Of a stretch of 64,000 bases of DNA, positions 4,363 to 64,000 are shown in pieces (within the stretch, counting starts at the first letter, position 1; each line of letters begins with the position of its first letter). The notes beneath the pieces are model-generated. The model was not told the DNA's origin. It did no database searches and saw only the letters and a program-made list of their open reading frames with translations. The stretch is taken from the NCBI GenBank assembly GCA_951813535.1, contig OX638345.1, positions 2,823,158-2,887,157 on the forward strand, written 5' to 3'. Both the position numbers and the translations under genes were made by a program. This stretch comes from an uncultured Dehalococcoidia bacterium (GTDB lineage: Bacteria > Chloroflexota > Dehalococcoidia > Lucifugimonadales > UBA3495).

Positions 4363-4706
4363 GACGCCACTGAGGCTGACACGGGGTTGCCAAAATCCTG
4401 GCTCGAATGCCTGAGTTAGAATCAAAAAAGTGGCCGAGCACCTCCCGTTGGCTGCAGCCTGGGGGCATATCGTCGGGATTGGCTCAGGCCAGGCACTCCC
4501 ACGGCACTCGCGGGACATCGCTTACCGTTGCTGCCGTCAAGCCCTGGCGGAGTTCGCGAGCCTGCGCCGCGTGGGACCCGGCCGTCAGCGCCATTCCCTG
4601 GGAAATTGGCCCTTGCGCCTTGCCGAGGGGAGGAATTCCACCCCGCTGTGGCGGGTTGCGGGTTCAGGGCACCGCCAGCTCCCCGTGTAGCACGACCACT
4701 CCAAAC

Positions 4707-51318: not shown

Positions 51319-54153
51319 TCACGCCGCCAATTCAACCCGACACGGCTCGAGGTGTAAACCCGGAACGCGGGCCATGGGATTGATATCCTCGGAGGCCTGA
51401 AGTTCGACGGCTAACTGACCGAACAAGGTGGTGATCGACACTACACCCGGCGGGACGGCCGGGTCCAGGTACGCGAGACCGGTGATCCGATTGCTTGCGG
51501 TCACGACGGCCACAGCCGCTTCATTGGAGATGCCCCAAGCGGTTGCATCCGCCGGATTGACACTCACCTGCTCGTCGCGCACGATGCGATTCAGCTGCCC
51601 CGATTCGACCGTGATATCTCTTTCACTCTGCAAAAGGACCCGGCCTGGAGCGAAGACGGCAGGCAGGTCAGGTTCGGTAACCATCGAAACTGCGCGGAAC
51701 AGAGGGGCGCCTGGTTCGGCTTTTCCGTTGGGGAACCCGTTGGCGTACAGAACCGAGGTTGAGGGGCTTGCAGCGGTAGGGCAGGGCCACTGTATGCCAC
51801 GTTCTTCGCGCGTCGTGTACAGCAATTGGGTGGGCCTGGGAGCATCCACGCCCGTCTGCATCACCAATGCCGTTTCCTGTGCCAACCGTTGATAGCTGAT
51901 ACCCCCGTAGTTCGGAGCTATCGAAGCTATTTCGTCCATGACCCGGGCGGGTTCGTCGTAGTTCATGCCATCCATATCCAACCGGCGGGACAGCTCGGCA
52001 AATATCCATCCTTCCGGCATGGCGTCGTTGTTGCGGACGGTGATCGCGGGCCGGACGCGCTGGACACGGCGCTCCAAGTTAGTGAGCGTGCCTTCTTTTT
52101 CTGCGATTGTGGCCCGCGGCAGAACAACATCGGCGACCTGAGCCACCGGGGACAGGAAAGTGTCCACAACCGCGAGAAATTCCAGCTGTTCGAATGCCGC
52201 CAAATCGCTGCCGAGAAGGCCGTTGGAATAGTTCGGGCTATCGCCGATCACCAGCATGGCGTTGACGCTGCCGCCTGCCGATGCGAGCATGGCCGCAGCG
52301 CCCTTGCCGGCCGAGGACGGCAGCGACGTTCCCCAAGCGGCCTCCACGCGCACCCGGTGGGCGTCGTCAAACGTGGGGGCTCCACCAGGGAGGCGATCAG
52401 GCAGGCAACCCACATCGATGGCTCCCTGTCCATTGGCGCCCTGTCGCATCGGGATTATCCCGCCCGACGGCTGGTCCACGTTGCGGGTGAGCAACGCCAA
52501 GTCGGCCAGAGCGACCACGCATTCACGGGTGATTTCGTTGGGCAGATTGTCAAGGCCGTAGACGATGGCCGCAGTGTCCGCCGCGCCATACATCCTGGCA
52601 GCGCGGGCGATGTCTTCAAGGGGAACCCCCGTCGCAGCAATGGTGTCGTCGTCCAAGCGTTCCAATTCGTAAACCAGGGTGTCGTAACTGTCCGCGTGTT
52701 CAGCGAGCCATGCGCCGTCGATGTAGTCTTCCTGAAACACCTGTTTCAGAATCGCTCCCAAAAGCAGCAACTCTGTGCCAGGCACTGGCCGTAGCCACAG
52801 ATCGGCGTACCGAGTTAGCTCCACCTCGCGCGTATCGATGACGATCAGCGGCGTACCGTTGCGGGCGGCGCGCTTGATCGGAACGCCCACCACATTGTGG
52901 CTTTCGGTCAGGTTCGTGTTGAACACCAGGATGCAGCCGGCCTTTTCCAAATCCCAAATGGAGTTGGTGGCCCCGGGGTAGCCGAGGACATCTTCCAGGG
53001 CCCCGGTGAGGGCGGGCTGCGTGTTGCCAGAATGATCGATATTGTTCGTGCTCATCCCGACGCGGGCGAATTTTTGGGCCAGGTAGAGCTCCTCGTTGGT
53101 GCTGTCCGGCGCGGTGATCAGACCGAAACCCTCTCCCGTCTGATGGGGCCGGAGCCGTTCGGCAACCAGATCCAGAGCCTCTTCCCAAGTGGCATTTTCC
53201 AGACGGCCGTTGCGACGTATCATGGGGCGGCGCATGCGCTGTCCGCTGGTCAGATGGCCCAGGCCGAACTTCCCCTTGTAGCAAGCCTGGCCGCGGTTGG
53301 CGGGAGAGTTGAGTTCAGGAATGGCACGGATCACCCGGCCTTGCTCGTTGATTTCCAGGTTCATCTGACAGCCGACGGGGCAGTGCGTGCAGACGGTGCG
53401 CTCCACCCGGGCGGCCTTTTCCCATTTGCCCTCTCGCTCGGTCAGGGCGCCGACGGGGCAAACGTCAATGCACGCGCCGCAGAACTCGCAGCCCGACTCC
53501 AGTAGAGACGTACCGAATGAGGTGCCTACCAACGCATTGCCGGACCGCTCGGTGAAGCAGATGGCGTTGTCACCGCGCACTTCTTCGCAGGCTCGGACAC
53601 AGCGCCCGCAAGTGATACACAGATTGTAGTCGCGATCATAGAATGGGTCGCTGACCTCCAAGGGGATATCGCGGTACATATAGGTCATGGGCGATTCGAG
53701 CTCCATCCCTAAGTACCGTACGGTGTCCTTGAATTCGCAACGCTCGTTCTTGGGACAGGTGATGCAACGATCGTTCACCGAGACGTGCCGCAGGCAGACG
53801 TCTGATGGTCCGCAGATGTCGACTCGGTGGCAAGTGAGGCAGCCGTTGGGGTGCTCGGCGATGAGCATCTGCATGACGGAGCGGCGTAGCTCTATGACAT
53901 CGGGCGTTTCGCTCCACACGGTCATGCCGTCGGTGGCTGCCAGGGTGCAGGCGGCCGGGAACCCCGGTACGCGTCCTCGCTCGTTTTCCGCGACCACCAC
54001 GCACATCCGGCACGCGGCATAGGGCTTCATACCCGAGTGGTAGCACAGGTACGGCACGTAGACGCCGGCATCGATGGCGGCTTCGAGCACCATCTTCCCG
54101 GGCTGGGTCTTGATTTCCACCCCGTCGATTGAGATGGTGATATCGTCAGGCAT
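51319..54153 (-). CDS. NuoG/Nqo3-like Fe-S plus molybdopterin-oxidoreductase-fold subunit
   Basis: N-terminal 2Fe-2S (CYHSGMKPYAACRMC) and several 4Fe-4S motifs, then an MopB-type domain. ATG at 54153 (the track ORF has 31 extra codons). Confidence 0.86.
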   Translation of the reverse strand: MPDDITISIDGVEIKTQPGKMVLEAAIDAGVYVPYLCYHSGMKPYAACRMCVVVAENERGRVPGFPAACTLAATDGMTVWSETPDVIELRRSVMQMLIAEHPNGCLTCHRVDICGPSDVCLRHVSVNDRCITCPKNERCEFKDTVRYLGMELESPMTYMYRDIPLEVSDPFYDRDYNLCITCGRCVRACEEVRGDNAICFTERSGNALVGTSFGTSLLESGCEFCGACIDVCPVGALTEREGKWEKAARVERTVCTHCPVGCQMNLEINEQGRVIRAIPELNSPANRGQACYKGKFGLGHLTSGQRMRRPMIRRNGRLENATWEEALDLVAERLRPHQTGEGFGLITAPDSTNEELYLAQKFARVGMSTNNIDHSGNTQPALTGALEDVLGYPGATNSIWDLEKAGCILVFNTNLTESHNVVGVPIKRAARNGTPLIVIDTREVELTRYADLWLRPVPGTELLLLGAILKQVFQEDYIDGAWLAEHADSYDTLVYELERLDDDTIAATGVPLEDIARAARMYGAADTAAIVYGLDNLPNEITRECVVALADLALLTRNVDQPSGGIIPMRQGANGQGAIDVGCLPDRLPGGAPTFDDAHRVRVEAAWGTSLPSSAGKGAAAMLASAGGSVNAMLVIGDSPNYSNGLLGSDLAAFEQLEFLAVVDTFLSPVAQVADVVLPRATIAEKEGTLTNLERRVQRVRPAITVRNNDAMPEGWIFAELSRRLDMDGMNYDEPARVMDEIASIAPNYGGISYQRLAQETALVMQTGVDAPRPTQLLYTTREERGIQWPCPTAASPSTSVLYANGFPNGKAEPGAPLFRAVSMVTEPDLPAVFAPGRVLLQSERDITVESGQLNRIVRDEQVSVNPADATAWGISNEAAVAVVTASNRITGLAYLDPAVPPGVVSITTLFGQLAVELQASEDINPMARVPGLHLEPCRVELAA

Positions 54154-54203
54154 GGCGATTCCTAGTCGAAAATAGAGCAGCGGCGAGATCAGGCGGCGGC
54201 TGA

Positions 54204-55961
54204 TCAGCGGCGAGTGAGGCGCGGCGAGAACACCTGGTCGGGACAATCACCGGTGTGCCGCTTTTCGCGAATGTGAGCGTCGAATTCGTGGCCAAAATAC
54301 CGGAGAGCGGACGACACCGGGTTGAACCCCAGCTGCCCGTGTCCGCACAGGGAACCGGCCTGCATGTTTTCGCCGATGTTGCGCATCAGCGCCAAGTCTT
54401 CCTCGGTGCCCTCGAGATTGCTGATGCGTTCCAAAACTTCGAGCAGGTGGCTCATACCCATGCGGCAGGGGAAGCACTTCCCGCAGGATTCGTACTGGCA
54501 AAAAGCGATGAGATTGCGCGTCAGGTCCACCACGCACGTATCCTCGTCAGCAACGATTATCCCGCCCGAGCCCAGAATGGCGCCGGCGGCGCGGAAGACG
54601 TCGAAATCGAGCACCAAGTCCAGGTTGGCGTCGCTGGCGGAAAGGACGCCTCCCAGCGGGCCGCCCGTCTGGAGCACTTTCATGGTCTTGCCGTTGGGAA
54701 CGCCACCGGCCATATCGAAGAGCACCTGGCGCAGGGTCATTCCCAGCGGAACTTCAATCAAGCCGGTGTAGGTGATATCTCCGGACAAGCACAGGATCGC
54801 GGTGCCGCTGCTTCCGTTGATCCTATTGTCCGGGTCGGGCTGGGTTCCGATACCGGCGAACCACTCCCCACCACGCGCCACGATCTCGGGCACGTACGCG
54901 AGCGTCTTGACGTTGTTGATGTTCGACGGCTTGCCGAAAACTCCCACCTGGGCGGGGAAAGGAGGTCGGTAACGGGGCATCGAGCGCTTGCCCTCGATGG
55001 CCTCCATCAAGGCCGTCTCTTCGCCGGAAACGTACGAGTCCCCGGTCAAGGCGACCTCGACGTCGAAGGAAAAATCGGTCCCCAGGATATTCTGGCCCAG
55101 GAGACCGAGATCGTAGGCCTGCTGGATGACGGCGCGAGTACGGTCGATAGGTTGGTTGTGGCCGTGCCGAATAAAGATGTAGCCGCGGTTGGCGTTGCAG
55201 GCGTATCCCGCAATGGTGATGCCTTCCACCACGGTTGCCGGATCGCTCTCCAGGATGCCCCTATCATTGAAAGCGCCCGGATCACCTTCCTCGCAGTTGC
55301 ACAGGATGTACTTGTTGGGATCAGGGTTGCCGGCCAGAAATCCCCATTTGATGCCGGCCGGGAAGGCCGCGCCGCCGCGACCACGGAGCCCGGAGGTCCG
55401 AACCTCGCCGAGCGTGGCTTCCGGGGTTATCTCGGTGAGCGCCTTGTTCAAGGCAGCATATCCGCCGTTGGCGATGTACTGGTGGAGGTCCGAGGGATCG
55501 ATGTTGCCGGCATTGCGCAGGGCGATGCGCTGCTGCAGGGCCATCATCGGGTGGTCTGCAAGGTTCGGAATTCCCGGAGGCGCCTGCGCCTGGGTGCCGA
55601 GGTAACCGATGGCGTGTTCCGCCAGCGGGTCGCCGCCGGCCACATGCTCACGCACGATGCGCTCGGCAAGTTCGGGCGTGACCTGGCTGTAGAACACCCG
55701 TGGCCCGCCTGGAGTCTGGACGTCCAGCAACGGCTCCGCGAAGCACAGGCCCAACGTACCGACCTCGGACACGTTGGCTGCCACCTGATGCTGTTCCAAG
55801 GCTGCTTTTACAGCGGCGACGACCTCGAACCCGCCAGCAGCTTCGCCGGCCAACCCGGTACCGACACGAATCCACGGCCGATCACCCGCGGTCAGGTTAT
55901 CCCAGCGGCGCCTCGCCTCTTCGAGGATGGCGTTGAAGGAGGATTCCGTCTGCACAGTCAC
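54204..55961 (-). CDS. NuoF-like NADH-binding flavoprotein subunit with N-terminal thioredoxin-like extension
   Basis: GLRGRGGAAFP, CNCEEGDPGAF and ESCGKCFPCR...LCGHGQ motifs. Confidence 0.9.
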   Translation of the reverse strand: MTVQTESSFNAILEEARRRWDNLTAGDRPWIRVGTGLAGEAAGGFEVVAAVKAALEQHQVAANVSEVGTLGLCFAEPLLDVQTPGGPRVFYSQVTPELAERIVREHVAGGDPLAEHAIGYLGTQAQAPPGIPNLADHPMMALQQRIALRNAGNIDPSDLHQYIANGGYAALNKALTEITPEATLGEVRTSGLRGRGGAAFPAGIKWGFLAGNPDPNKYILCNCEEGDPGAFNDRGILESDPATVVEGITIAGYACNANRGYIFIRHGHNQPIDRTRAVIQQAYDLGLLGQNILGTDFSFDVEVALTGDSYVSGEETALMEAIEGKRSMPRYRPPFPAQVGVFGKPSNINNVKTLAYVPEIVARGGEWFAGIGTQPDPDNRINGSSGTAILCLSGDITYTGLIEVPLGMTLRQVLFDMAGGVPNGKTMKVLQTGGPLGGVLSASDANLDLVLDFDVFRAAGAILGSGGIIVADEDTCVVDLTRNLIAFCQYESCGKCFPCRMGMSHLLEVLERISNLEGTEEDLALMRNIGENMQAGSLCGHGQLGFNPVSSALRYFGHEFDAHIREKRHTGDCPDQVFSPRLTRR

Positions 55962-55976
55962 GAGGCGGTCTGCCTT

Positions 55977-56456
55977 TCAGTGCGCGGGGTTGGAGGATAG
56001 CGCCGCCGCGATTCGTGACCGCGCGACGTCCGGGGTGATACGGCCGGCGAGATGATGGTTGATTGCCATCACCGGAGCGTGAGCGCAGGCTCCCAGGCAC
56101 GTGTTGTAGTGGAGGGTTGCTTTCCCGTCGGGCGTATCGCCTTCGTCAGAAAGTCCCAACGACTCCTGAGCCGCCGCGATCACTGCGGTCGCGCCCATCA
56201 CATGGCAAGACGGCCCCCAGCAGACCTCGACCCGGATGTCGGTGGGCGGCTCAAACCGGAAGTTCGGATAGAAGGTGGCTACCGCCCAAACATCGTTGAC
56301 GGTAGCGTCCATCCGGGCGGCAACTGCTTCCACCGCTTCGGTCGGGATGTAACCGATGGCGTCCTCGATTGCCAGCAGGGACGAAAGGACGGTGACCGTG
56401 CTCTGTGGCTGGTCGTTTACCGCCCGATCAATGAGCTGAAGAGTGCCATCATCCAT
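55977..56456 (-). CDS. NuoE-like thioredoxin-fold [2Fe-2S] subunit
   Basis: VCWGPSCH and CLGACAHAP motifs. Confidence 0.9.
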   Translation of the reverse strand: MDDGTLQLIDRAVNDQPQSTVTVLSSLLAIEDAIGYIPTEAVEAVAARMDATVNDVWAVATFYPNFRFEPPTDIRVEVCWGPSCHVMGATAVIAAAQESLGLSDEGDTPDGKATLHYNTCLGACAHAPVMAINHHLAGRITPDVARSRIAAALSSNPAH

Positions 56457-56559: not shown

Positions 56560-57216
56560 TCAGTTTTCGCCGGCCTCGCGATTTTCCAAAGCCTTGTCCA
56601 TCACACGCTGGAAAACCTCGTAAGGTTGGGCGCCACTGAAAAGCAGGTTGTCGAAAACGAAGGTCGGTATCCCACGGATGCCGTAGCCCAAGGCTTCGTG
56701 ATACTGGTCAACCACTTTCTGCGCATAGTGGCCCGATTCCACGCGTTCGCGCAGCTCGCCGCCATCAAGGCCGACGCGGGAGCCGATGTCAGCCAGAACC
56801 GACGGATCTCCGAGATCGGCCCCGTTGTCCCAATACGCCTCGTAAGCGGCGTGGTGGTACTCGAGGAATTTGCCCTGTTCCTGGGCGTACTCGGTCGCCT
56901 GGAGGGAGTACAGGCTGTTTGGAGTGTGCTTCGGCGGCCGCATCACCAGGTTGGCCTCCCGCGCATAGGTCCGGAGGGGGTCGGCCAGCTCGTCATCGGA
57001 TTCCCCGGAGCGGGCCTCGCGTACGCGGCCCTCCTGCGGCGTGTCGGGGCGCAAAAGATAGGCTCGGCCCTCGACGGTGATGTCGTATTCTTCCGCAAGT
57101 TTGTCGACGCGCTCAAGGCCGACATAGCACCAGGGTCAAATATAGTCGTACCACACGATCACATGAACGGGATTGGGGTCGTCCGGATGGCTGTGGGCCG
57201 GCGGCTGGGTGGTCAT
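56560..57216 (-). CDS. DsbA/FrnE-family thiol oxidoreductase, candidate selenoprotein (TGA 57136-57138 read as Sec, U-P-W-C motif)
   Basis: ATG 57216 lies 4 nt after AGGAGA. The translation runs MTTQPPAHSHPDDPNPVHVIVWYDYI-[TGA]-PWCYVGLERVDKLAEEYDITVEG... and ends ...GIRGIPTFVFDNLLFSGAQPYEVF. The two track ORFs (57136..57582 and 56560..57054) share a frame and are separated only by this TGA. Confidence 0.72.
57102..57124 (-). promoter_or_regulatory. SECIS-like hairpin 11 nt downstream of the TGA
   Basis: mRNA UGUCGGC-CUUGAGCGC-GUCGACA: a 7-bp stem (one G-U pair) with a 9-nt loop. Confidence 0.4.
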
Positions 57217-58145: not shown

Positions 58146-58922
58146 CTACAACGTTACCAGTTCGACGAGAGCGGCGGAGACCTCTGCCGGAGAGGCTAAT
58201 CGCCAGGTCGCGCAGGTACTGACCCCGGGCGCCCCCACGTATACTCCAATACCCCCAGCGGACCGGACTGCGCCGAAAGCATCTTCGTCGGTTGCGTCGT
58301 CGCCCATGTAGATGGGGAAAGACTTTGGGGACAACCGAGATCGGATCAACGTGAGGGCTCTGCCCTTGTTCCAGTCGATCGACGGGCGAAGTTCCAAAGC
58401 CATCTTGGCTTCGGTGACATGGCAAAATCCAGACTGGACCAATGGATGGGCAATATCGTCAAACGTGGACACGACCCGGTCGTGATAGTAAGGCGGAGTT
58501 TGCCGGAAATGCGTAGTGAGGGTGTAGGTCTTGTTTTCGACGAAAGCGCCGGGCACACCTGCCAAACGGAGTTCCAGATCGTGGGACGCCTCGCTGATGG
58601 TTCGGGACGCAGCCTCAGCATCGGGGTGGCGGTAATCCATTCCGAGGCCGCGTATCTCCAGGCCATGGTTGCCGGCGTACACCAGGCCCGGAACGTTCAC
58701 CCGCGCCTCGACGTCCTGCAGAGACCGTCCGCTGATCACTCCGACCACGAACTCGGGACGCTCGACGAGTTGGCAGAGCAGTGACTGATTCCCAGGGCAC
58801 AGGGTGGCCTGTTCAGGCCGGGGAGCGATTTCTGATAGGGTCCCGTCGAAATCGAGAAGGAGCAGGATGGGGTCCCGCCCGATGACCAGGTCTTTCAGTT
58901 CGTCGAGGTTGAGATCGAGCAT
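58146..58922 (-). CDS. otsB: trehalose-phosphatase
   Basis: LLLDFDGTLSEI and YMGDDATDEDAF motifs. ATG at 58922 lies 11 nt after the otsA stop. Confidence 0.84.
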   Translation of the reverse strand: MLDLNLDELKDLVIGRDPILLLLDFDGTLSEIAPRPEQATLCPGNQSLLCQLVERPEFVVGVISGRSLQDVEARVNVPGLVYAGNHGLEIRGLGMDYRHPDAEAASRTISEASHDLELRLAGVPGAFVENKTYTLTTHFRQTPPYYHDRVVSTFDDIAHPLVQSGFCHVTEAKMALELRPSIDWNKGRALTLIRSRLSPKSFPIYMGDDATDEDAFGAVRSAGGIGVYVGAPGVSTCATWRLASPAEVSAALVELVTL

Positions 58923-58933
58923 GGGGATGGGCT

Positions 58934-60442
58934 CTATGCCGTGGTCGCAATAGTGAGGCGGGAGTGGTCGGGGGTGCTCGCCTGCATGAGGTGCATCATG
59001 ATGCGGCCGGCCCATTTGTAAATGTTGTTTTCGCGGACCGTGTTGCGCATCTGGCGCATCCGGATGCGGCGCTCCGCGCCACTCATGGTGAGGGCCTGGT
59101 GAATGGCTTCGGCGAACTGCTCGGTGGCGTAGGGGTTGATTATGAGCGAGCCGGTGAGTTCCTGGGCGGCCCCGGCGAAAGCGCTGAGGATGAGCACGCC
59201 ATCCTCATCGACACGGGAAGCCACGTACTCCTTGGCCACGAGGTTCATGCCGTCGTGGAGGCTGCTCTCGGCGCAGAAACTGGCGAGACGGCGCAGCGCC
59301 GAAAAAGTCACCGAGGGCAGGGAAGTAGGCCAATAGAGTACCGGCTGCCAGCCGTCGTGGCCGAAACGCTCGTTGATGCGGTTGACGGTGGCCTCGATGT
59401 CTATGGTCAGCTGCATGTACGAGTCGATGTTGGTGCGACTGGTGGCTCCGGCTTGGAGGAACACCAACTGCCCGCGGTACTGGGGCCATTTCTCAAACAG
59501 ACGCTCGACGGCTCGGAGGCGATGGGGGATGCCCTTGGTGTAGTCCTGCCGGTCGATGCCCAGGCCAAGGATGCGACCGCGGTTCAATCCCAATTGCCGG
59601 GAAAGGCGGGCCATTTCGGCTTCAACTTCATCGGATCTGGCCTCGGCGTCGAGACTGTCGAAATCGATGCTGATGGGGAATGGACGCACCAGGGTGGTCT
59701 CGTCCCTGTAGTCGATGAGGCCGTATTCGGAATCGACGTGAGCATCCAGGTTCGCATCAACGCAGTTGAGGAAGTTCTGACAGTCTCCGGAGAGGTGGAA
59801 GCCCAGGAGATCGTTGCCCAGCATGCCGTCAAGAATTTCGTCCTGCCAAGGGCAAATCCGCAAGATGTCTGGATTGGGCCACGGAATATGCCAGAACTGC
59901 CCGATTATGGCATCCGGATTGACCTCACGGATGTATCTGGGGAGGAGGGCCAGATGATAGTCCTGGATCAGAACGATGGCCGGCTCGTCGTTGATTTCGT
60001 CGAGCACCAGGTCCGCGAAGCGCCGGTTCACCGACTGATAGAAGCCGTAGTGCTCCGCGTCGAAAACCGGCTCTGTGTAGGCGATGTGGCACAGCGGCCA
60101 CAGGCCCTCGTTGGCGAAGCCATAGTAAAAGCCCTGGTTCTCTTCTTTGCTCAAGCTGAGCAGCCGCATGGAGTAAGCGGGATCGTCGGTAGGCACGTGG
60201 ATACGGCCCGACGCATCCATGGCGGCACGATCATCATCACCGTCACTCTGGGCGATCCAGGTACCGCCGCAGGCGCGCATCAGCGGATCGATAGCCGCAG
60301 TCAGCCCGCCCGGGGGCATTACCCCGTGGGGCACACCGTCCAGCATCGTAAACACGTACGGCTGCCGATTTGACACCACGACCAGCCGATAGTCGCTCAA
60401 TTCCCGGCCTACCAAGCGCTGTAAATCATCGCCGGTCCACAT
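58934..60442 (-). CDS. otsA: alpha,alpha-trehalose-phosphate synthase (GT20)
   Basis: VVVSNRQPY, GFYYGFANEGLWPLCH, IQDYHLALLP and DGMNLVAKEY motifs. GGAGG RBS. Confidence 0.92.
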   Translation of the reverse strand: MWTGDDLQRLVGRELSDYRLVVVSNRQPYVFTMLDGVPHGVMPPGGLTAAIDPLMRACGGTWIAQSDGDDDRAAMDASGRIHVPTDDPAYSMRLLSLSKEENQGFYYGFANEGLWPLCHIAYTEPVFDAEHYGFYQSVNRRFADLVLDEINDEPAIVLIQDYHLALLPRYIREVNPDAIIGQFWHIPWPNPDILRICPWQDEILDGMLGNDLLGFHLSGDCQNFLNCVDANLDAHVDSEYGLIDYRDETTLVRPFPISIDFDSLDAEARSDEVEAEMARLSRQLGLNRGRILGLGIDRQDYTKGIPHRLRAVERLFEKWPQYRGQLVFLQAGATSRTNIDSYMQLTIDIEATVNRINERFGHDGWQPVLYWPTSLPSVTFSALRRLASFCAESSLHDGMNLVAKEYVASRVDEDGVLILSAFAGAAQELTGSLIINPYATEQFAEAIHQALTMSGAERRIRMRQMRNTVRENNIYKWAGRIMMHLMQASTPDHSRLTIATTA

Positions 60443-60808: not shown

Positions 60809-61636
60809 TTATTCGTCGCGGATGCGGTTGTACATGGCGAGGGGAGTGGCGGCGAGGAGGCCGGCGTCTACGGGCAGGACGACCCCGGACACCCAGCGCG
60901 CCTCGTCGCTGGCGAGGAACAGGGCGGCGTAGGCGATGTCCCAGGCGTTGCCCTCGACTCCCAGGGGGCCGGCCTTGCGGCGATTTTCGCGGGTTTCTTC
61001 GGCCATGGCGCCGGCGACCATGGGAGTGTAGATGTGGCCCGGGGCAATTACATTCACGCGGATGTTGTCGCGGCCCAGGTGGACCGCCATCGTCTCCGAC
61101 ATGCCGATGACGCCGGACTTGGATGCAGAATAGGGGATACTGGCAAGACCGCTTCCGGCGCGGACGCCGGCAATGGACGACATGTTGATGATGCTGCCGC
61201 CGCCGGCGTCGATCATCTTGGGCGCAGCGTACTTGGTGGTGAGCATCATGCTCTTGAGGTTCACATCGAGGACGTTGTCCCAGACACTCTCCTCCACATC
61301 GGTGGGCGTGCCGGGGCCGGTGATGCCGACGTTATTGAAGAGCACGTGCAGGCCACCGTAACGGTCTACGGCGGCGGCGACTATGGCCTCACAGTCGGCG
61401 CCGGAGGTGACGTCGGCAGCGATTACGGACGCCTCTCCGCCCTCCTCATGGATGACGGCAAGGGTCTCTTCGGCGGCCTGAAGGTTGCGATCGACCAGCA
61501 GCACGCGAGCGCCCTCTCGGGCGAACAGAATTGATGCAGCCTTGCCGGTGCCAACACCGGGGCCACTGGAGCCGGCGCCGGTAACAATGGCGACTTTATC
61601 CTGCAGACGGGGTCGTCCGGATGGAAGGAGTGTCAT
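60809..61636 (-). CDS. SDR family oxidoreductase
   Basis: TGAGSSGPGVGTG, NNVG and YSASK motifs. Confidence 0.88.
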   Translation of the reverse strand: MTLLPSGRPRLQDKVAIVTGAGSSGPGVGTGKAASILFAREGARVLLVDRNLQAAEETLAVIHEEGGEASVIAADVTSGADCEAIVAAAVDRYGGLHVLFNNVGITGPGTPTDVEESVWDNVLDVNLKSMMLTTKYAAPKMIDAGGGSIINMSSIAGVRAGSGLASIPYSASKSGVIGMSETMAVHLGRDNIRVNVIAPGHIYTPMVAGAMAEETRENRRKAGPLGVEGNAWDIAYAALFLASDEARWVSGVVLPVDAGLLAATPLAMYNRIRDE

Positions 61637-61667: not shown

Positions 61668-62234
61668 TCAGGAGGCGAGCGCAGGCTGTGGAGTGAGGAG
61701 CCAGTCCTGGGCCTGCTTGGCGGCGTCCGAGAGCCACTGGCCCATGATCGCCTCGCGCCCCTCGGGGATTTCGACTCCCAGGCCGTCAGCCAGGCGGTTC
61801 ATGAAGTTGAACACACAGGTGATGGCGACGGTGGACAGCACCTGCTGATCGGTGAGGCCCGTGGCACGCAGGCCGTCAATATCGGACTCCCGCATTAGAG
61901 CCGGGGTCAGGGTGAGTTTGACCGCGTAGTCGAGGATGGCGCGGGTCTGCGGGTCTAGGTCAGCCTGGGTGTAATCGTGGATGATGTGGCTGGAGTACTC
62001 GGGATCGTCAGAGTGTTGACGGAGGAACCCTCCGTGGGCCACGGCTCAATAACGGCAGCGGTTGACGAGGGACACCACCGTGGCGATGGCCTCTTCCTGG
62101 GTGCGGGTGAGCACTGAGGAACCGAAAGTGGCATTGGCGTTGAGGTTCTGCACAGCCGCCATCAGGTCCGGATTGATGGACATGCATTTGATAACCGCAG
62201 GCACCGCGGCGTCGGTTTCGCGGATCCAGGACAT
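61668..62234 (-). CDS. AhpD/carboxymuconolactone-decarboxylase-family peroxidase-related protein, candidate selenoprotein (TGA 62046-62048 read as Sec, C-R-Y-U motif)
   Basis: ATG 62234 lies 5 nt after AGGAGG. The translation reads ...EEAIATVVSLVNRCRY-[TGA]-AVAHGGFLRQ..., which matches the VSxxNxCxYCxxxH core of the family with the second Cys replaced by TGA. The track ORFs 62046..62234 and 61668..62042 share a frame. Confidence 0.78.
62019..62035 (-). promoter_or_regulatory. SECIS-like hairpin 10 nt downstream of the TGA
   Basis: mRNA ACGGAGG-GUU-CCUCCGU: a perfect 7-bp stem with a GUU loop. Confidence 0.5.
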
Positions 62235-62276: not shown

Positions 62277-62675
62277 TCAGCTGCCGGTTGGGGTCTGGGT
62301 TACGATGGCCATCTTATGTTCAGCAGTCCCGAGCAACAGACCGCCGTGGTGAACCTCCACCTCGAAACGGAGCTTGTTGCCGGACACGTCGGTGAGAACG
62401 GAGCGCGCGGTGGCGACCGCACCGGCATCCGCCGGGGCCAAATGTTTGACGTTGACCTCGTAGCCGACGACCGTTTGATCCGGATGGAGCAGAGACAGGA
62501 CAGCTTGGTACGAGGCCTGCTCCATGAGCATGACCATTGCCGGGGTGCTGAACTTGGGAGTATGGGGAGCCAGGTGTTCAGCGGCGACGGTCAATTGAGT
62601 TTCGCCTGCCAGACCGGGCCGGATGGCCGGGTCTATGGGCAGGCGAGACGGTTGCGAGGTACCCGGAGTCGCCAT
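62277..62675 (-). CDS. hotdog-fold thioesterase (FlK-like)
   Basis: FSTPAMVMLMEQASYQAV and VGYEVNVKHLAPA motifs. ATG at 62675 lies 25 nt after the upstream stop. Confidence 0.72.
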   Translation of the reverse strand: MATPGTSQPSRLPIDPAIRPGLAGETQLTVAAEHLAPHTPKFSTPAMVMLMEQASYQAVLSLLHPDQTVVGYEVNVKHLAPADAGAVATARSVLTDVSGNKLRFEVEVHHGGLLLGTAEHKMAIVTQTPTGS

Positions 62676-62700: not shown

Positions 62701-63261
62701 TTAGGCGGCCACGGGCTGGCCGACCAGGATGGACTCCACCTCGTCGGCGATCTCGGCGGCGCGGGCCTTGACCTCATCGTCGTTGAGGCTGGACAGGGGA
62801 TGCTGCGCGACCACATAACGATAGTCGGGCACACCCATCATGCGGGTCATGGCCTGGGCAGTGTTGAGGAAAACGTGGGTGATGATGGCCGCGGTTGGGA
62901 CGCCGCGCTTCTCGAAATCGATGCCGTCGTGCACACTGCACGAGCTGCAGGACCCTCAATCCCCGACCCCGGTGATGAGGTAGTCGACCTCACCGAGGAT
63001 GGAGTCGATGGTGTCCTGCTTGGCCGGCAGGCTGGCGTGACCCTTGTCGTAGTACTTGATCTCGGAGAAACCGTGGCGTTCGTTGAGGATGTTGCCGAGT
63101 TCATGAAGGAGCTTGTCCGCGTTGGCCTTGGAGTTTTCCATGAGGCCGAGGCGCTTCCCGGCGAGGCCGGCAGAGCGGTCGTTCATGTGGAACTCGGACT
63201 GGGGCAACTCGGTGCCCCTGGGGTTGACGAGCCTGAGGCGGCTCGATTCGGCGGTTGTCAT
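62701..63261 (-). CDS. UGSC-motif protein, candidate selenoprotein (TGA 62956-62958 read as Sec, U-G-S-C-S-S-C)
   Basis: ATG 63261 lies 6 nt after GGAGG. The translation reads ...EVDYLITGVGD-[TGA]-GSCSSCSVHDGIDFEKRGVPTAAIITHVF.... The track ORFs 62956..63261 and 62701..62934 share a frame. UxxCxxC resembles the GrdB-type redox motif (from memory). Confidence 0.7.
62927..62943 (-). promoter_or_regulatory. SECIS-like hairpin 12 nt downstream of the TGA
   Basis: mRNA UCGUGCA-GUG-UGCACGA: a perfect 7-bp stem with a GUG loop. Confidence 0.5.
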
Positions 63262-63384
63262 GGGTGACCTCCGTAGATTCTGGCGTGTCGGCGGGATGAG
63301 CTATGTGAGCGGATTGTACCGTCAAATGACGGCTTTGCGTAACCCCTGGTGAGAGAACGGTTGACGTATCCGATCTCTTGGTTC

Positions 63385-64000
63385 CTAGTTGGCGGAGATT
63401 TTGCGGGTGCGAATGCGGTAGCCGGTGGTGTCGATGATGGCGCTGTAGCGGCCGCCGGTTCCGCCGCCGTGCATGATGAGGATGTCGTCGGGGTCGTTGG
63501 CGCAGCGCATGATCAGTTCCTCGTCCCCGGGGCGTTCGGGTCCCTGCTTGGAGCCGAGGCGGACGAGTTCGGCGCGGGAGCGGCCGCTGTTCTCGATGAG
63601 GAAATCCTGCATATCGCGGCGGGTCCAGCCGCCATCCTGCAGGGTGAGAGCGTGCTCAGGCCCGATGACGATGACCCACTGGGCCGGATAACGGTGGGCC
63701 AAGGCGGCGGATCGCAGGGCGTCGCAGATGGAGAGCAGAATGGCTCGTCCGTCGTGGGCGTAGCTGTTGGGAACGCTGACGGGGTTGTAGGCGACGGCGA
63801 CGGTTACCACGCTGTCGGAGGCATCGAAGCCGCGACTGACGTGGAGTGGTTCCCAGGGGGACGTCTCCTCGTTTTCGGCGATGCAAAAGGTGTACTTGGC
63901 CGGGGTGCCCAAGGTGCCGCGGTCCAACTGGCCGGGCCAGGCGTCGAAGCCGTTCATGAAGCAGAGGCGAACGGCGCGGCCGATGCTGGCGTTGGCACGG
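63385..64000 (-). CDS. hypothetical protein, N-terminus outside window
   Basis: The frame stays open from 63957 to the window edge (RANASIGRAVRLCF precedes the first Met). No family recognised. First gene of the string that contains two TGA-recoded genes. Confidence 0.55.
   Translation of the reverse strand, partial: RANASIGRAVRLCFMNGFDAWPGQLDRGTLGTPAKYTFCIAENEETSPWEPLHVSRGFDASDSVVTVAVAYNPVSVPNSYAHDGRAILLSICDALRSAALAHRYPAQWVIVIGPEHALTLQDGGWTRRDMQDFLIENSGRSRAELVRLGSKQGPERPGDEELIMRCANDPDDILIMHGGGTGGRYSAIIDTTGYRIRTRKISAN

Follow-up and report, generated by a model that had tools for sequence, protein, structure and literature searches.

Proteins of the 'UGSC-containing protein' family have been described since 2007 by Zhang and Gladyshev (PMC1976440, PMC2398784). 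Their 2008 paper reported a fusion of the UGSC domain to an unknown domain, 'Unknown_1', and guessed at a thioredoxin-like fold and a thioredoxin-like redox role (PMC2398784). The family accounts for about 8% of all the selenoprotein genes found in metagenomes from oceans and freshwater (PMC9402790), and its function is still listed as unknown in reviews (PMC9312934, PMC13188914). Here we describe a 64,000-nucleotide stretch of contig OX638345.1 from an uncultured Dehalococcoidia bacterium, referred to below in its full length as the window, near one end of which a small gene on the minus strand (62701..63261) is interrupted by an in-frame TGA. The gene almost certainly encodes a UGSC-family selenoprotein and is a regular member of this catalogued, curated and functionally uncharacterised family, so that its novelty as a gene is low. 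The new point of our analysis is its linkage to a conserved partner gene, which has been published only as an occasional fusion. We favour the reading that UGSC is a selenocysteine (Sec)-decoded redox subunit that would act together with this partner, and we put the probability of that explanation as a whole at about 60%.

The UGA-interrupted frame and its hairpin

The features of the gene, all on the minus strand, are as follows.

62701..63261 (-): gene assigned to the UGSC selenoprotein family, with ATG at 63261..63259, Sec codon 102 and TAA at 62703..62701; 186 codons
63268..63272 (-): Shine-Dalgarno-like GGAGG, 6 nt 5' of the ATG at 63261, read from the sequence
62956..62958 (-): in-frame UGA, inferred Sec codon (U102); the position is Cys in 18 of 18 full-length homologues
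62947..62958 (-): U-G-S-C putative redox motif (U102, C105), placed by the structural model at strand b3 and the N-terminus of helix a3
62927..62943 (-): predicted bacterial Sec insertion sequence (SECIS) hairpin, UCGUGCA-GUG-UGCACGA, with a 7-bp stem and the apical loop G-U-G at +20..+22 after the UGA

Translation of 62701..63261 bears out the single small-protein frame from ATG 63261 that the initial annotation had proposed: 101 amino acids, the TGA, a further 84 amino acids and the terminal TAA, or 187 codons including the stop, giving a 186-residue product if the TGA is decoded. The sequence around the TGA (62958..62956) reads VDYLITGVGD-TGA-GSCSSCSVHDGIDFEKRGVPTAAI; the motif is preceded by Asp, as D-U-G-S-C, and in full reads U-G-S-C-S-S-C. 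When U was written as C, the joined protein scored 155.7 bits against NCBIfam NF041046 (cut-off 125, model positions 2-146 of 147) and 192.8 bits against Pfam PF24696 (UGSC; cut-off 25, model positions 2-171 of 172), in agreement with the NCBI name 'UGSC family (seleno)protein' that the initial annotation had given. The UGSC profile also matched each half beside the TGA separately, with E 1.2e-28 for 62959..63300 and E 7.5e-36 for 62704..62955, and the residues G100 D101 U102 G103 S104 C105 S106 (G-D-[U/C]-G-S-C-S) are invariant among 19 sequences. Homology thus runs across the TGA junction and Cys orthologues exist, as that annotation's proposal supposed. The novelty it implied is absent, because the family has been published since 2007 and has curated hidden Markov models (HMMs).

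The family is large. A profile search of 1.84 billion cluster representatives returned 4,156 at E <= 0.001, and close relatives of the window's proteins are annotated as Chloroflexota metagenome-assembled genomes (MAGs). The closest relatives in a set of 5.8 billion proteins are fragments of about 102 amino acids, gene calls that end at the same TGA, while on their contigs the second half is called as a separate PF24696 piece. We collected a Sec-type set of at least 120 metagenome loci, among the matches listed, by the DNA pattern [G/A]-V-G-D-TGA-G-S-C; with ten loci of close relatives and the window added there are 133 pattern hits, about 121 of which are UGSC domains with a frame that stays open beyond the TGA. 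Two metagenome contigs (L129 and L185) hold two Sec-type UGSC genes each. As a Cys-type control we used 80 loci from a genome scan with a Cys-containing peptide pattern, which found only the Cys type.

An alternative is that the TGA is a real stop, whether the gene is a pseudogene, contains a sequencing error or is in fact two genes, and that no selenoprotein is made. TGA is an ordinary stop in the source genome, where it ends 18 of the 43 longest open reading frames (ORFs); gene callers split the UGSC gene in every database copy; and no Sec machinery is visible within the window. Against this, more than 110 distinct sequences from the environment share the TGA and have an intact frame after it, Cys stands in its place in homologues, and a second gene would have neither a start codon nor a ribosome-binding site after the TGA, apart from a GTG within the hairpin. 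The hairpin itself, which covaries and is a feature of the TGA forms, is likewise at odds with a real stop, and we regard this alternative as extremely improbable.

In bacteria, a hairpin of this kind recruits SelB with Sec-tRNA(Sec), and the consensus, of the E. coli fdhF type, is a stem-loop within the coding sequence that begins about 11-13 nt after the UGA and presents an apical G-U about 20 nt downstream. The 17-nt hairpin noted in the initial annotation is present as stated, with its onset exactly 12 nt 3' of the TGA and perfect 7-bp pairing. Single-sequence folding of a 66-nt stretch gave a minimum free energy no better than that of shuffles (z 0.92), and support therefore had to come from comparison, for which 113 unique Sec-type and 78 Cys-type sequences were used. 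Sec-type genes have the stem in a fixed register and cap it with a 3-nt loop, G-U-N, that occupies +20..+22 from the UGA; at least 5 contiguous base pairs in that register occur in 94 of 113 (83%) Sec-type genes versus 8 of 78 (10%) Cys-type genes. The loop G is present in 92% of the Sec type versus 4% of the Cys type, and the loop U in 87% versus 0%. Paired cells amount to 89.3% versus 73.7% in shuffles (ungapped alignment; none of 500 shuffles reached the observed value), with slid controls at 17-54%; two-sided changes number 85 cells versus 25.5 expected (again 0 of 500 shuffles), and compensatory changes affect 5 of the 7 stem pairs. Being conserved, covarying and largely confined to UGA forms, the hairpin is, on this comparative evidence, a bacterial SECIS element. 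Nearby lie two more redox genes that are interrupted by TGA and carry known selenoprotein motifs, and these are consistent with Sec decoding in the source organism.

The partner gene and a proposed two-component unit

The gene upstream of UGSC runs off the edge of the window.

63385..64000 (-): partner gene, 3' two-thirds (204 codons), with the stop TAG at 63387..63385, 123 nt before the UGSC start

We recognised it through fusion proteins. UGSC family fusions of 540-660 amino acids have a C-terminal region of about 370 residues without a Pfam match, and the upstream ORF of the window matches the C-terminal domain of one of them (P0179) with E 1e-30 over 189 amino acids. Stand-alone partners are about 346 amino acids long, and their named members include proteins of Dehalococcoidia, SAR202 and other Chloroflexi. 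Co-occurrence was scored with an HMM built from stand-alone partners only, honouring all stops and using domain coordinates. Among the small-form loci of the Sec type, 18 of 19 have a partner as the same-strand neighbour of UGSC, and in 15 of them it lies upstream, the order seen in the window; of the Cys-type loci 71 of 75 have one, which lies downstream in 68. The median gap between the two genes is 35-44 nt. All 7 long forms carry it in the same ORF as UGSC, which brings the loci with a fused or neighbouring same-strand partner to 96 of 101. The initial annotation had called the partners of this gene unknown, a statement on which this near-universal neighbour improves.

The partner itself has no Pfam or NCBIfam model and no sequence relative in the PDB, and a predicted structure (predicted local distance difference test score, pLDDT, 78.9) gave no significant PDB fold match (best E 0.035, template modelling score, TM, 0.21). 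Across 162 sequences reaching down to 26% identity, D28, N73, S107, T108, N118, N128, R139, N141, R146, N154 and E180 are conserved, and two cysteines are mostly kept, Cys79 in 88% and Cys177 in 78%. Long Sec-containing UGSC-partner fusions are common in metagenomes. Those of L108, L116, L144 and L162, of about 600-650 amino acids, open with a hydrophobic, signal-peptide-like stretch, a hint that the system also exists in exported versions. In relatives with genomes of about 3.8 Mb (L081-L084, 3425..8588; L211), two to six DUF4058 genes are inserted between partner and UGSC and PaREP1 genes lie upstream of the partner; the UGSC-partner linkage is kept despite the insertions.

For the fold of UGSC we turned to a Cys homologue with 42% identity, whose AlphaFold2 model (pLDDT 88.3, predicted TM-score 0.83) alternates strand and helix five times (b-a x5) and places the motif between strand 3 (E86-92) and helix 3 (H95-110). 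Foldseek comparison with the PDB gave weak flavodoxin-like matches, the best to MsuE (TM 0.48) and others to WrbA and flavodiiron flavodoxin domains. A PDB sequence search with the UGSC profile likewise yielded no more than weak flavodoxin-like matches and no thioredoxin-fold similarity, and none was seen in Pfam or among the top PDB folds. As modelled, the fold is probably flavodoxin-like and not thioredoxin-like, and the thioredoxin-like fold guessed in 2008 (PMC2398784) is unsupported by the b-a x5 model and the PDB matches. A GrdB-like query fragment matched no PDB chain, so that the missing GrdB/PrdB fold match says little.

A possible electron source is indicated by rare gene arrangements. 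A Nocardioidaceae MAG (L219, 4698..7831; L220) has an overlapping four-gene operon in which thioredoxin reductase (TrxR), thioredoxin (Trx), the partner (355 amino acids) and a UGSC::Nfu fusion follow one another, and one protein fuses UGSC to a TrxR-like domain. This suggests a thioredoxin-type electron supply for UGSC.

Taken together, we propose the following. UGA-102 would be decoded as Sec by means of the SECIS hairpin, 13-29 nt downstream, with its 7-bp stem and G-U-N loop. The product would be a small five-stranded alpha/beta domain presenting U-G-S-C where strand 3 ends and helix 3 starts, and there Sec102 and Cys105 could cycle between the selenol/thiol and selenenylsulfide states. 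UGSC would then be the smaller, redox-active subunit in a unit of two components. The other component, the upstream-encoded partner of about 346 amino acids with its invariant polar residues and two mostly conserved cysteines, presumably binds and transforms the substrate. UGSC may deliver or accept reducing equivalents and may be recycled by thioredoxin-type donors. For the two-component redox mechanism taken separately we would offer even odds.

Several points weigh against this proposal. The Rfam gathering scan of the window gave no SECIS family and there is no matching SECIS model, and Sec-insertion genes and tRNA-Sec are not in the 64-kb window, in which no tRNA genes were found. No partner is nearby in 5 of the 101 loci, and one SAR202 genome has a partner but no UGSC within 3 kb. 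The partner is without a recognisable fold or family, so that its status as an enzyme is something we infer. The structural model is of the 42%-identical Cys homologue and not of the window protein, and its Foldseek matches are weak. TrxR/Trx adjacency was found in 0 of 86 surveyed loci; the thioredoxin link consists of one separately fetched operon (on two contigs) and one fusion, and is anecdotal. Finally, the reviews PMC9312934 and PMC13188914 still assign the UGSC family no function.

Neighbouring genes and alternative roles

Three genes follow UGSC on the same strand.

62277..62675 (-): FlK-type hotdog thioesterase (PF22636), a lineage-specific neighbour
61668..62234 (-): AhpD-like gene (CMD, PF02627) with an in-frame UGA at 62046..62048 and the motif C-R-Y-U, a lineage-specific neighbour
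60809..61636 (-): short-chain dehydrogenase/reductase (SDR) gene, 275 amino acids, an occasional third component of UGSC-partner clusters

The initial annotation had offered these genes as functional context to be checked by co-occurrence. The thioesterase, AhpD-like and SDR genes follow UGSC only in close relatives, and an AhpD-like gene adjoins UGSC in only one of the 19 Sec-type loci and in none of the 75 Cys-type loci. The SDR of the window is 43% identical to an SDR beside a Streptomyces UGSC-partner pair, and such an SDR occurs in 8 of 86 loci. We rejected the three genes as core components, since they are lineage-specific accessories in the surveyed loci. The C-R-Y-U motif of the AhpD-like gene is the CxxU of known AhpD-like selenoproteins, and its UGA is followed by a hairpin, ACGGAGG-GUU-CCUCCGU (7 bp, 62019..62035), with the G-U loop at +18..+20.

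A DsbA/FrnE-like gene (PF01323) at 56560..57216 (-) likewise has an in-frame TGA, at 57136..57138, in the context VWYDYI-U-PWC-YVG. The UxxC falls at the position of the DsbA active-site CPWC; the downstream hairpin is not convincing. By its sequence, the gene is a candidate for a third selenoprotein within 7 kb.

The presence of three redox selenoprotein genes within 7 kb invites a different reading, in which UGSC would be a free-standing general thiol/selenol-disulfide oxidoreductase that serves antioxidant defence together with the AhpD-like and DsbA-like selenoproteins, and the partner would be its preferred client. A UxxC at a helix N-terminus is a classic redox arrangement, a thioredoxin-like redox role was the guess in the literature (PMC2398784), and the Trx/TrxR operon and the TrxR-like fusion exist. 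The predicted fold, however, is not that of thioredoxin, and the scarcity of AhpD-like adjacency in either set of loci does not favour a shared defence system. With a partner, frequently a fused one, in 96 of 101 loci, a dedicated role is indicated rather than a general one, and we consider a general oxidoreductase unlikely.

A second set of recurring neighbours consists of NifU/Nfu-like CxxC domains. These are fused to UGSC in P0028, P0053, P0086 and P0092, and by sequence inspection in P0115 and P0213. A stand-alone Nfu-like gene of 101 amino acids is present in 26 of 69 Cys-type loci, whereas an Nfu-like domain was found in 1 of 17 Sec-type loci. From this recurrence one could argue that U/C-x-x-C holds a metal, an Fe-S cluster or selenium/sulfur as a ligand site instead of forming a redox couple, and that UGSC works with the Nfu-like domain and the partner to assemble a cofactor or deliver it. 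The matches to Nfu are weak, at 26-32 bits versus a cut-off of 27, and no such domain is encoded in the cluster of the window; moreover, only two ligand residues are conserved in UGSC, and Sec is more typical of catalytic redox sites. A cofactor-delivery role seems improbable to us on these grounds.

In Streptomyces mexicanus (L216-L218, 4376..12354) the order is UGSC, partner, the 101-amino-acid Nfu-like gene and SDR. This cluster is flanked by a PaaX regulator and an AMP-dependent ligase, and by a Rieske/VanA-type oxygenase and its reductase, a neighbourhood that hints at aromatic-acid or CoA-thioester metabolism.

Other genes of the window are recorded here for completeness. Directly downstream of the SDR are OtsA (GT20, trehalose-6-phosphate synthase) and OtsB (trehalose phosphatase), at 58146..60442 (-) with an overlap of about 80 nt. 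A cluster at 51319..56456 (-) encodes NuoE-like and NuoF-like proteins and a 975-amino-acid protein resembling NuoG or the formate dehydrogenase alpha subunit; this large subunit has no in-frame stop and is apparently a Cys-type enzyme, if it is a formate dehydrogenase at all. The only Rfam match in the window is a large signal recognition particle RNA (RF01854, 138.7 bits) at 4434..4695 (-).

Relation to GrdB, PrdB and other known systems

The initial annotation had interpreted U-G-S-C-S-S-C as a GrdB-like redox centre with a UxxCxxC motif. The third Cys is not conserved: it is present in 2 of 18 full-length Cys homologues and absent from the other 16, and of the Sec-type genes 40 of 113 encode a Cys at +6, against none of the 78 Cys-type loci. 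All 40 genes with the +6 Cys have His at +9, and in the SECIS stem the CAC/CAT codon of this His lies opposite UGC and pairs with it; other codons at +6 and +9 are likewise complementary (Gly-GGC/Leu-CUC, Ala-GCC/Ala-GCC, Tyr-UAC/Tyr-UAC and Trp-UGG/His-CAC). Because the +6 Cys appears only with a +9 His whose codon pairs in the stem, the third Cys is most readily understood as a by-product of the RNA stem of the SECIS, with the caveat that two Cys-type Nfu fusions also carry it.

At the level of families, the joined UGSC protein gave no match to PF07355 (GRDB) at E <= 1, and an HMM built from 120 PrdB proteins gave no match in the window at E <= 1. These PrdB proteins were gathered with a single bait query, and only those annotated at source as PF07355/PrdB were kept. 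The 64-kb window has no grd- or prd-type gene, which extends to the whole window the initial annotation's statement that grdA/grdC/grdE-type genes are not visible nearby; the only such match was PrdC against the NuoF-like protein through their common Complex1_51K domain. Judged by these profiles, UGSC is not a member of the GrdB/PrdB family.

A local likeness can nevertheless be detected at the selenium site, and to this extent the GrdB-like interpretation is supported. PrdB proteins read ...VDxVLLTAG-[U/C]-GTCHRSAVIVQRAIExxGIPTIII... and UGSC proteins ...CDVVITGVGD-[U/C]-GSCSASAVADGIxFExxGVPTAVIC..., with the same spacing after the Sec. Profile alignment with hhalign matched the two Sec positions to each other and covered 49-58 columns (E 6e-4 to 1.1e-3), at a probability of only 20-28%. 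The score of 29.2 compares with maxima of 23.4 in 150 column shuffles and 26.5 in 150 block shuffles and with 19.4 for the reversed profile. When UGSC was compared with all five proteins encoded by a real prd operon, PrdB was the only one to score (26.7, E 0.002; others <= 16.6). The PrdB gene of a Clostridium sporogenes-type prd operon (L215, 7001..7726) has a Cys codon and not TGA at the Sec position, and its translation meets no internal stop. As far as such alignments can tell, the likeness to the PrdB selenium centre appears real and specific but local, and may reflect either homology or convergence.

One could go further and take UGSC to be a true divergent homologue of GrdB/PrdB that carries out a Stickland-type reductive cleavage, in which Sec attacks a substrate held on a pyruvoyl or other carbonyl group of the partner and the partner replaces PrdA/GrdE. 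The Sec-centred similarity, its identical spacing, its standing above all shuffles and its specificity for PrdB among the prd proteins would agree with this, as would the two-subunit logic and the thioredoxin-system operon, which parallel glycine reductase (PMC13188914). It is opposed by the lack of a PF07355 match and the low hhalign probability over only about 58 columns. The partner, which has no Pfam match, shows no similarity to PrdA, PrdC, PrdD, PrdE or PrdB (E >= 0.3 against PrdA, PrdD and PrdE), the window has no grdA/C/D or prd genes, the third Cys is not conserved, and the hosts include aerobic Actinomycetota and Chloroflexota. We consider a Stickland-type homologue very unlikely, and we retain the two-component redox unit as the preferred explanation.

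The gene in the window reveals no new kind of element, and annotation pipelines already name its family. What the analysis adds is a set of leads for UGSC, namely a near-obligatory partner, an electron-supply hint from the TrxR-Trx operon and the TrxR-like fusion, and a local PrdB/GrdB-like selenium centre, and it corrects two assumptions, in that the fold is probably not thioredoxin-like and the GrdB-like extra Cys would be a side effect of the SECIS stem. Tentatively, and with more doubt than confidence, we suggest that UGSC and its partner of about 346 amino acids form a widespread, unrecognised two-component Sec/Cys-dependent reductase, in which the Sec module would share ancestry with the PrdB/GrdB centre and the catalytic subunit would have a fold and a reaction new to Pfam, NCBIfam and the PDB. 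If true, this would give a role to one of the most abundant environmental selenoprotein families, and the reductase would exist in cytoplasmic, exported and fused versions in Chloroflexota, Actinomycetota, Proteobacteria and many uncultured lineages. The function of UGSC is open to genetics because Cys-type versions are present in cultivable Streptomyces, Microbacterium and Citricoccus.

Compared with the SECIS of the E. coli fdhF type, the UGSC hairpin is alike in its position within the coding sequence, its onset and its apical G-U, and differs in its very small 3-nt loop (G-U-N), its stem of 5-10 bp and its lack of detection by Rfam. Thioredoxin, glutaredoxin and DsbA, including their Sec forms, have in common with UGSC a U/CxxC at a helix N-terminus and an occasional TrxR linkage; their dithiol (selenol-thiol)/disulfide cycling is probable in UGSC as well, while their fold differs from the b-a x5, flavodoxin-like topology predicted for UGSC.

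PrdB and GrdB share with UGSC the strand-[U]-G-[ST]-C-helix unit of the UxxC class, an identical spacing from U to the E-x-x-G-[IV]-P-T strand (U+15 to U+21) and, if our reading of UGSC is right, the combination of a small Sec redox subunit with a larger substrate-handling subunit. They differ in that the N-terminal 130 residues and the C-terminal tail of PrdB have no counterpart in UGSC, that the UGSC partner is unrelated to the pyruvoyl proproteins PrdA/GrdE and the window has no grdA/C/D or prdC/D/E, and that PrdB/GrdB hosts are Stickland fermenters whereas UGSC hosts are largely aerobic Chloroflexota and Actinomycetota. With the UGSC family itself (NF041046/PF24696) the gene of the window shares the full-length HMM match, the G-D-U-G-S-C-S motif, the Sec/Cys alternation, the SECIS hairpin and the size of about 185 amino acids, and no feature sets it apart. 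Relative to the published description of that family, the guessed thioredoxin-like fold becomes a predicted flavodoxin-like one, and the occasional fusion becomes a near-universal partner.

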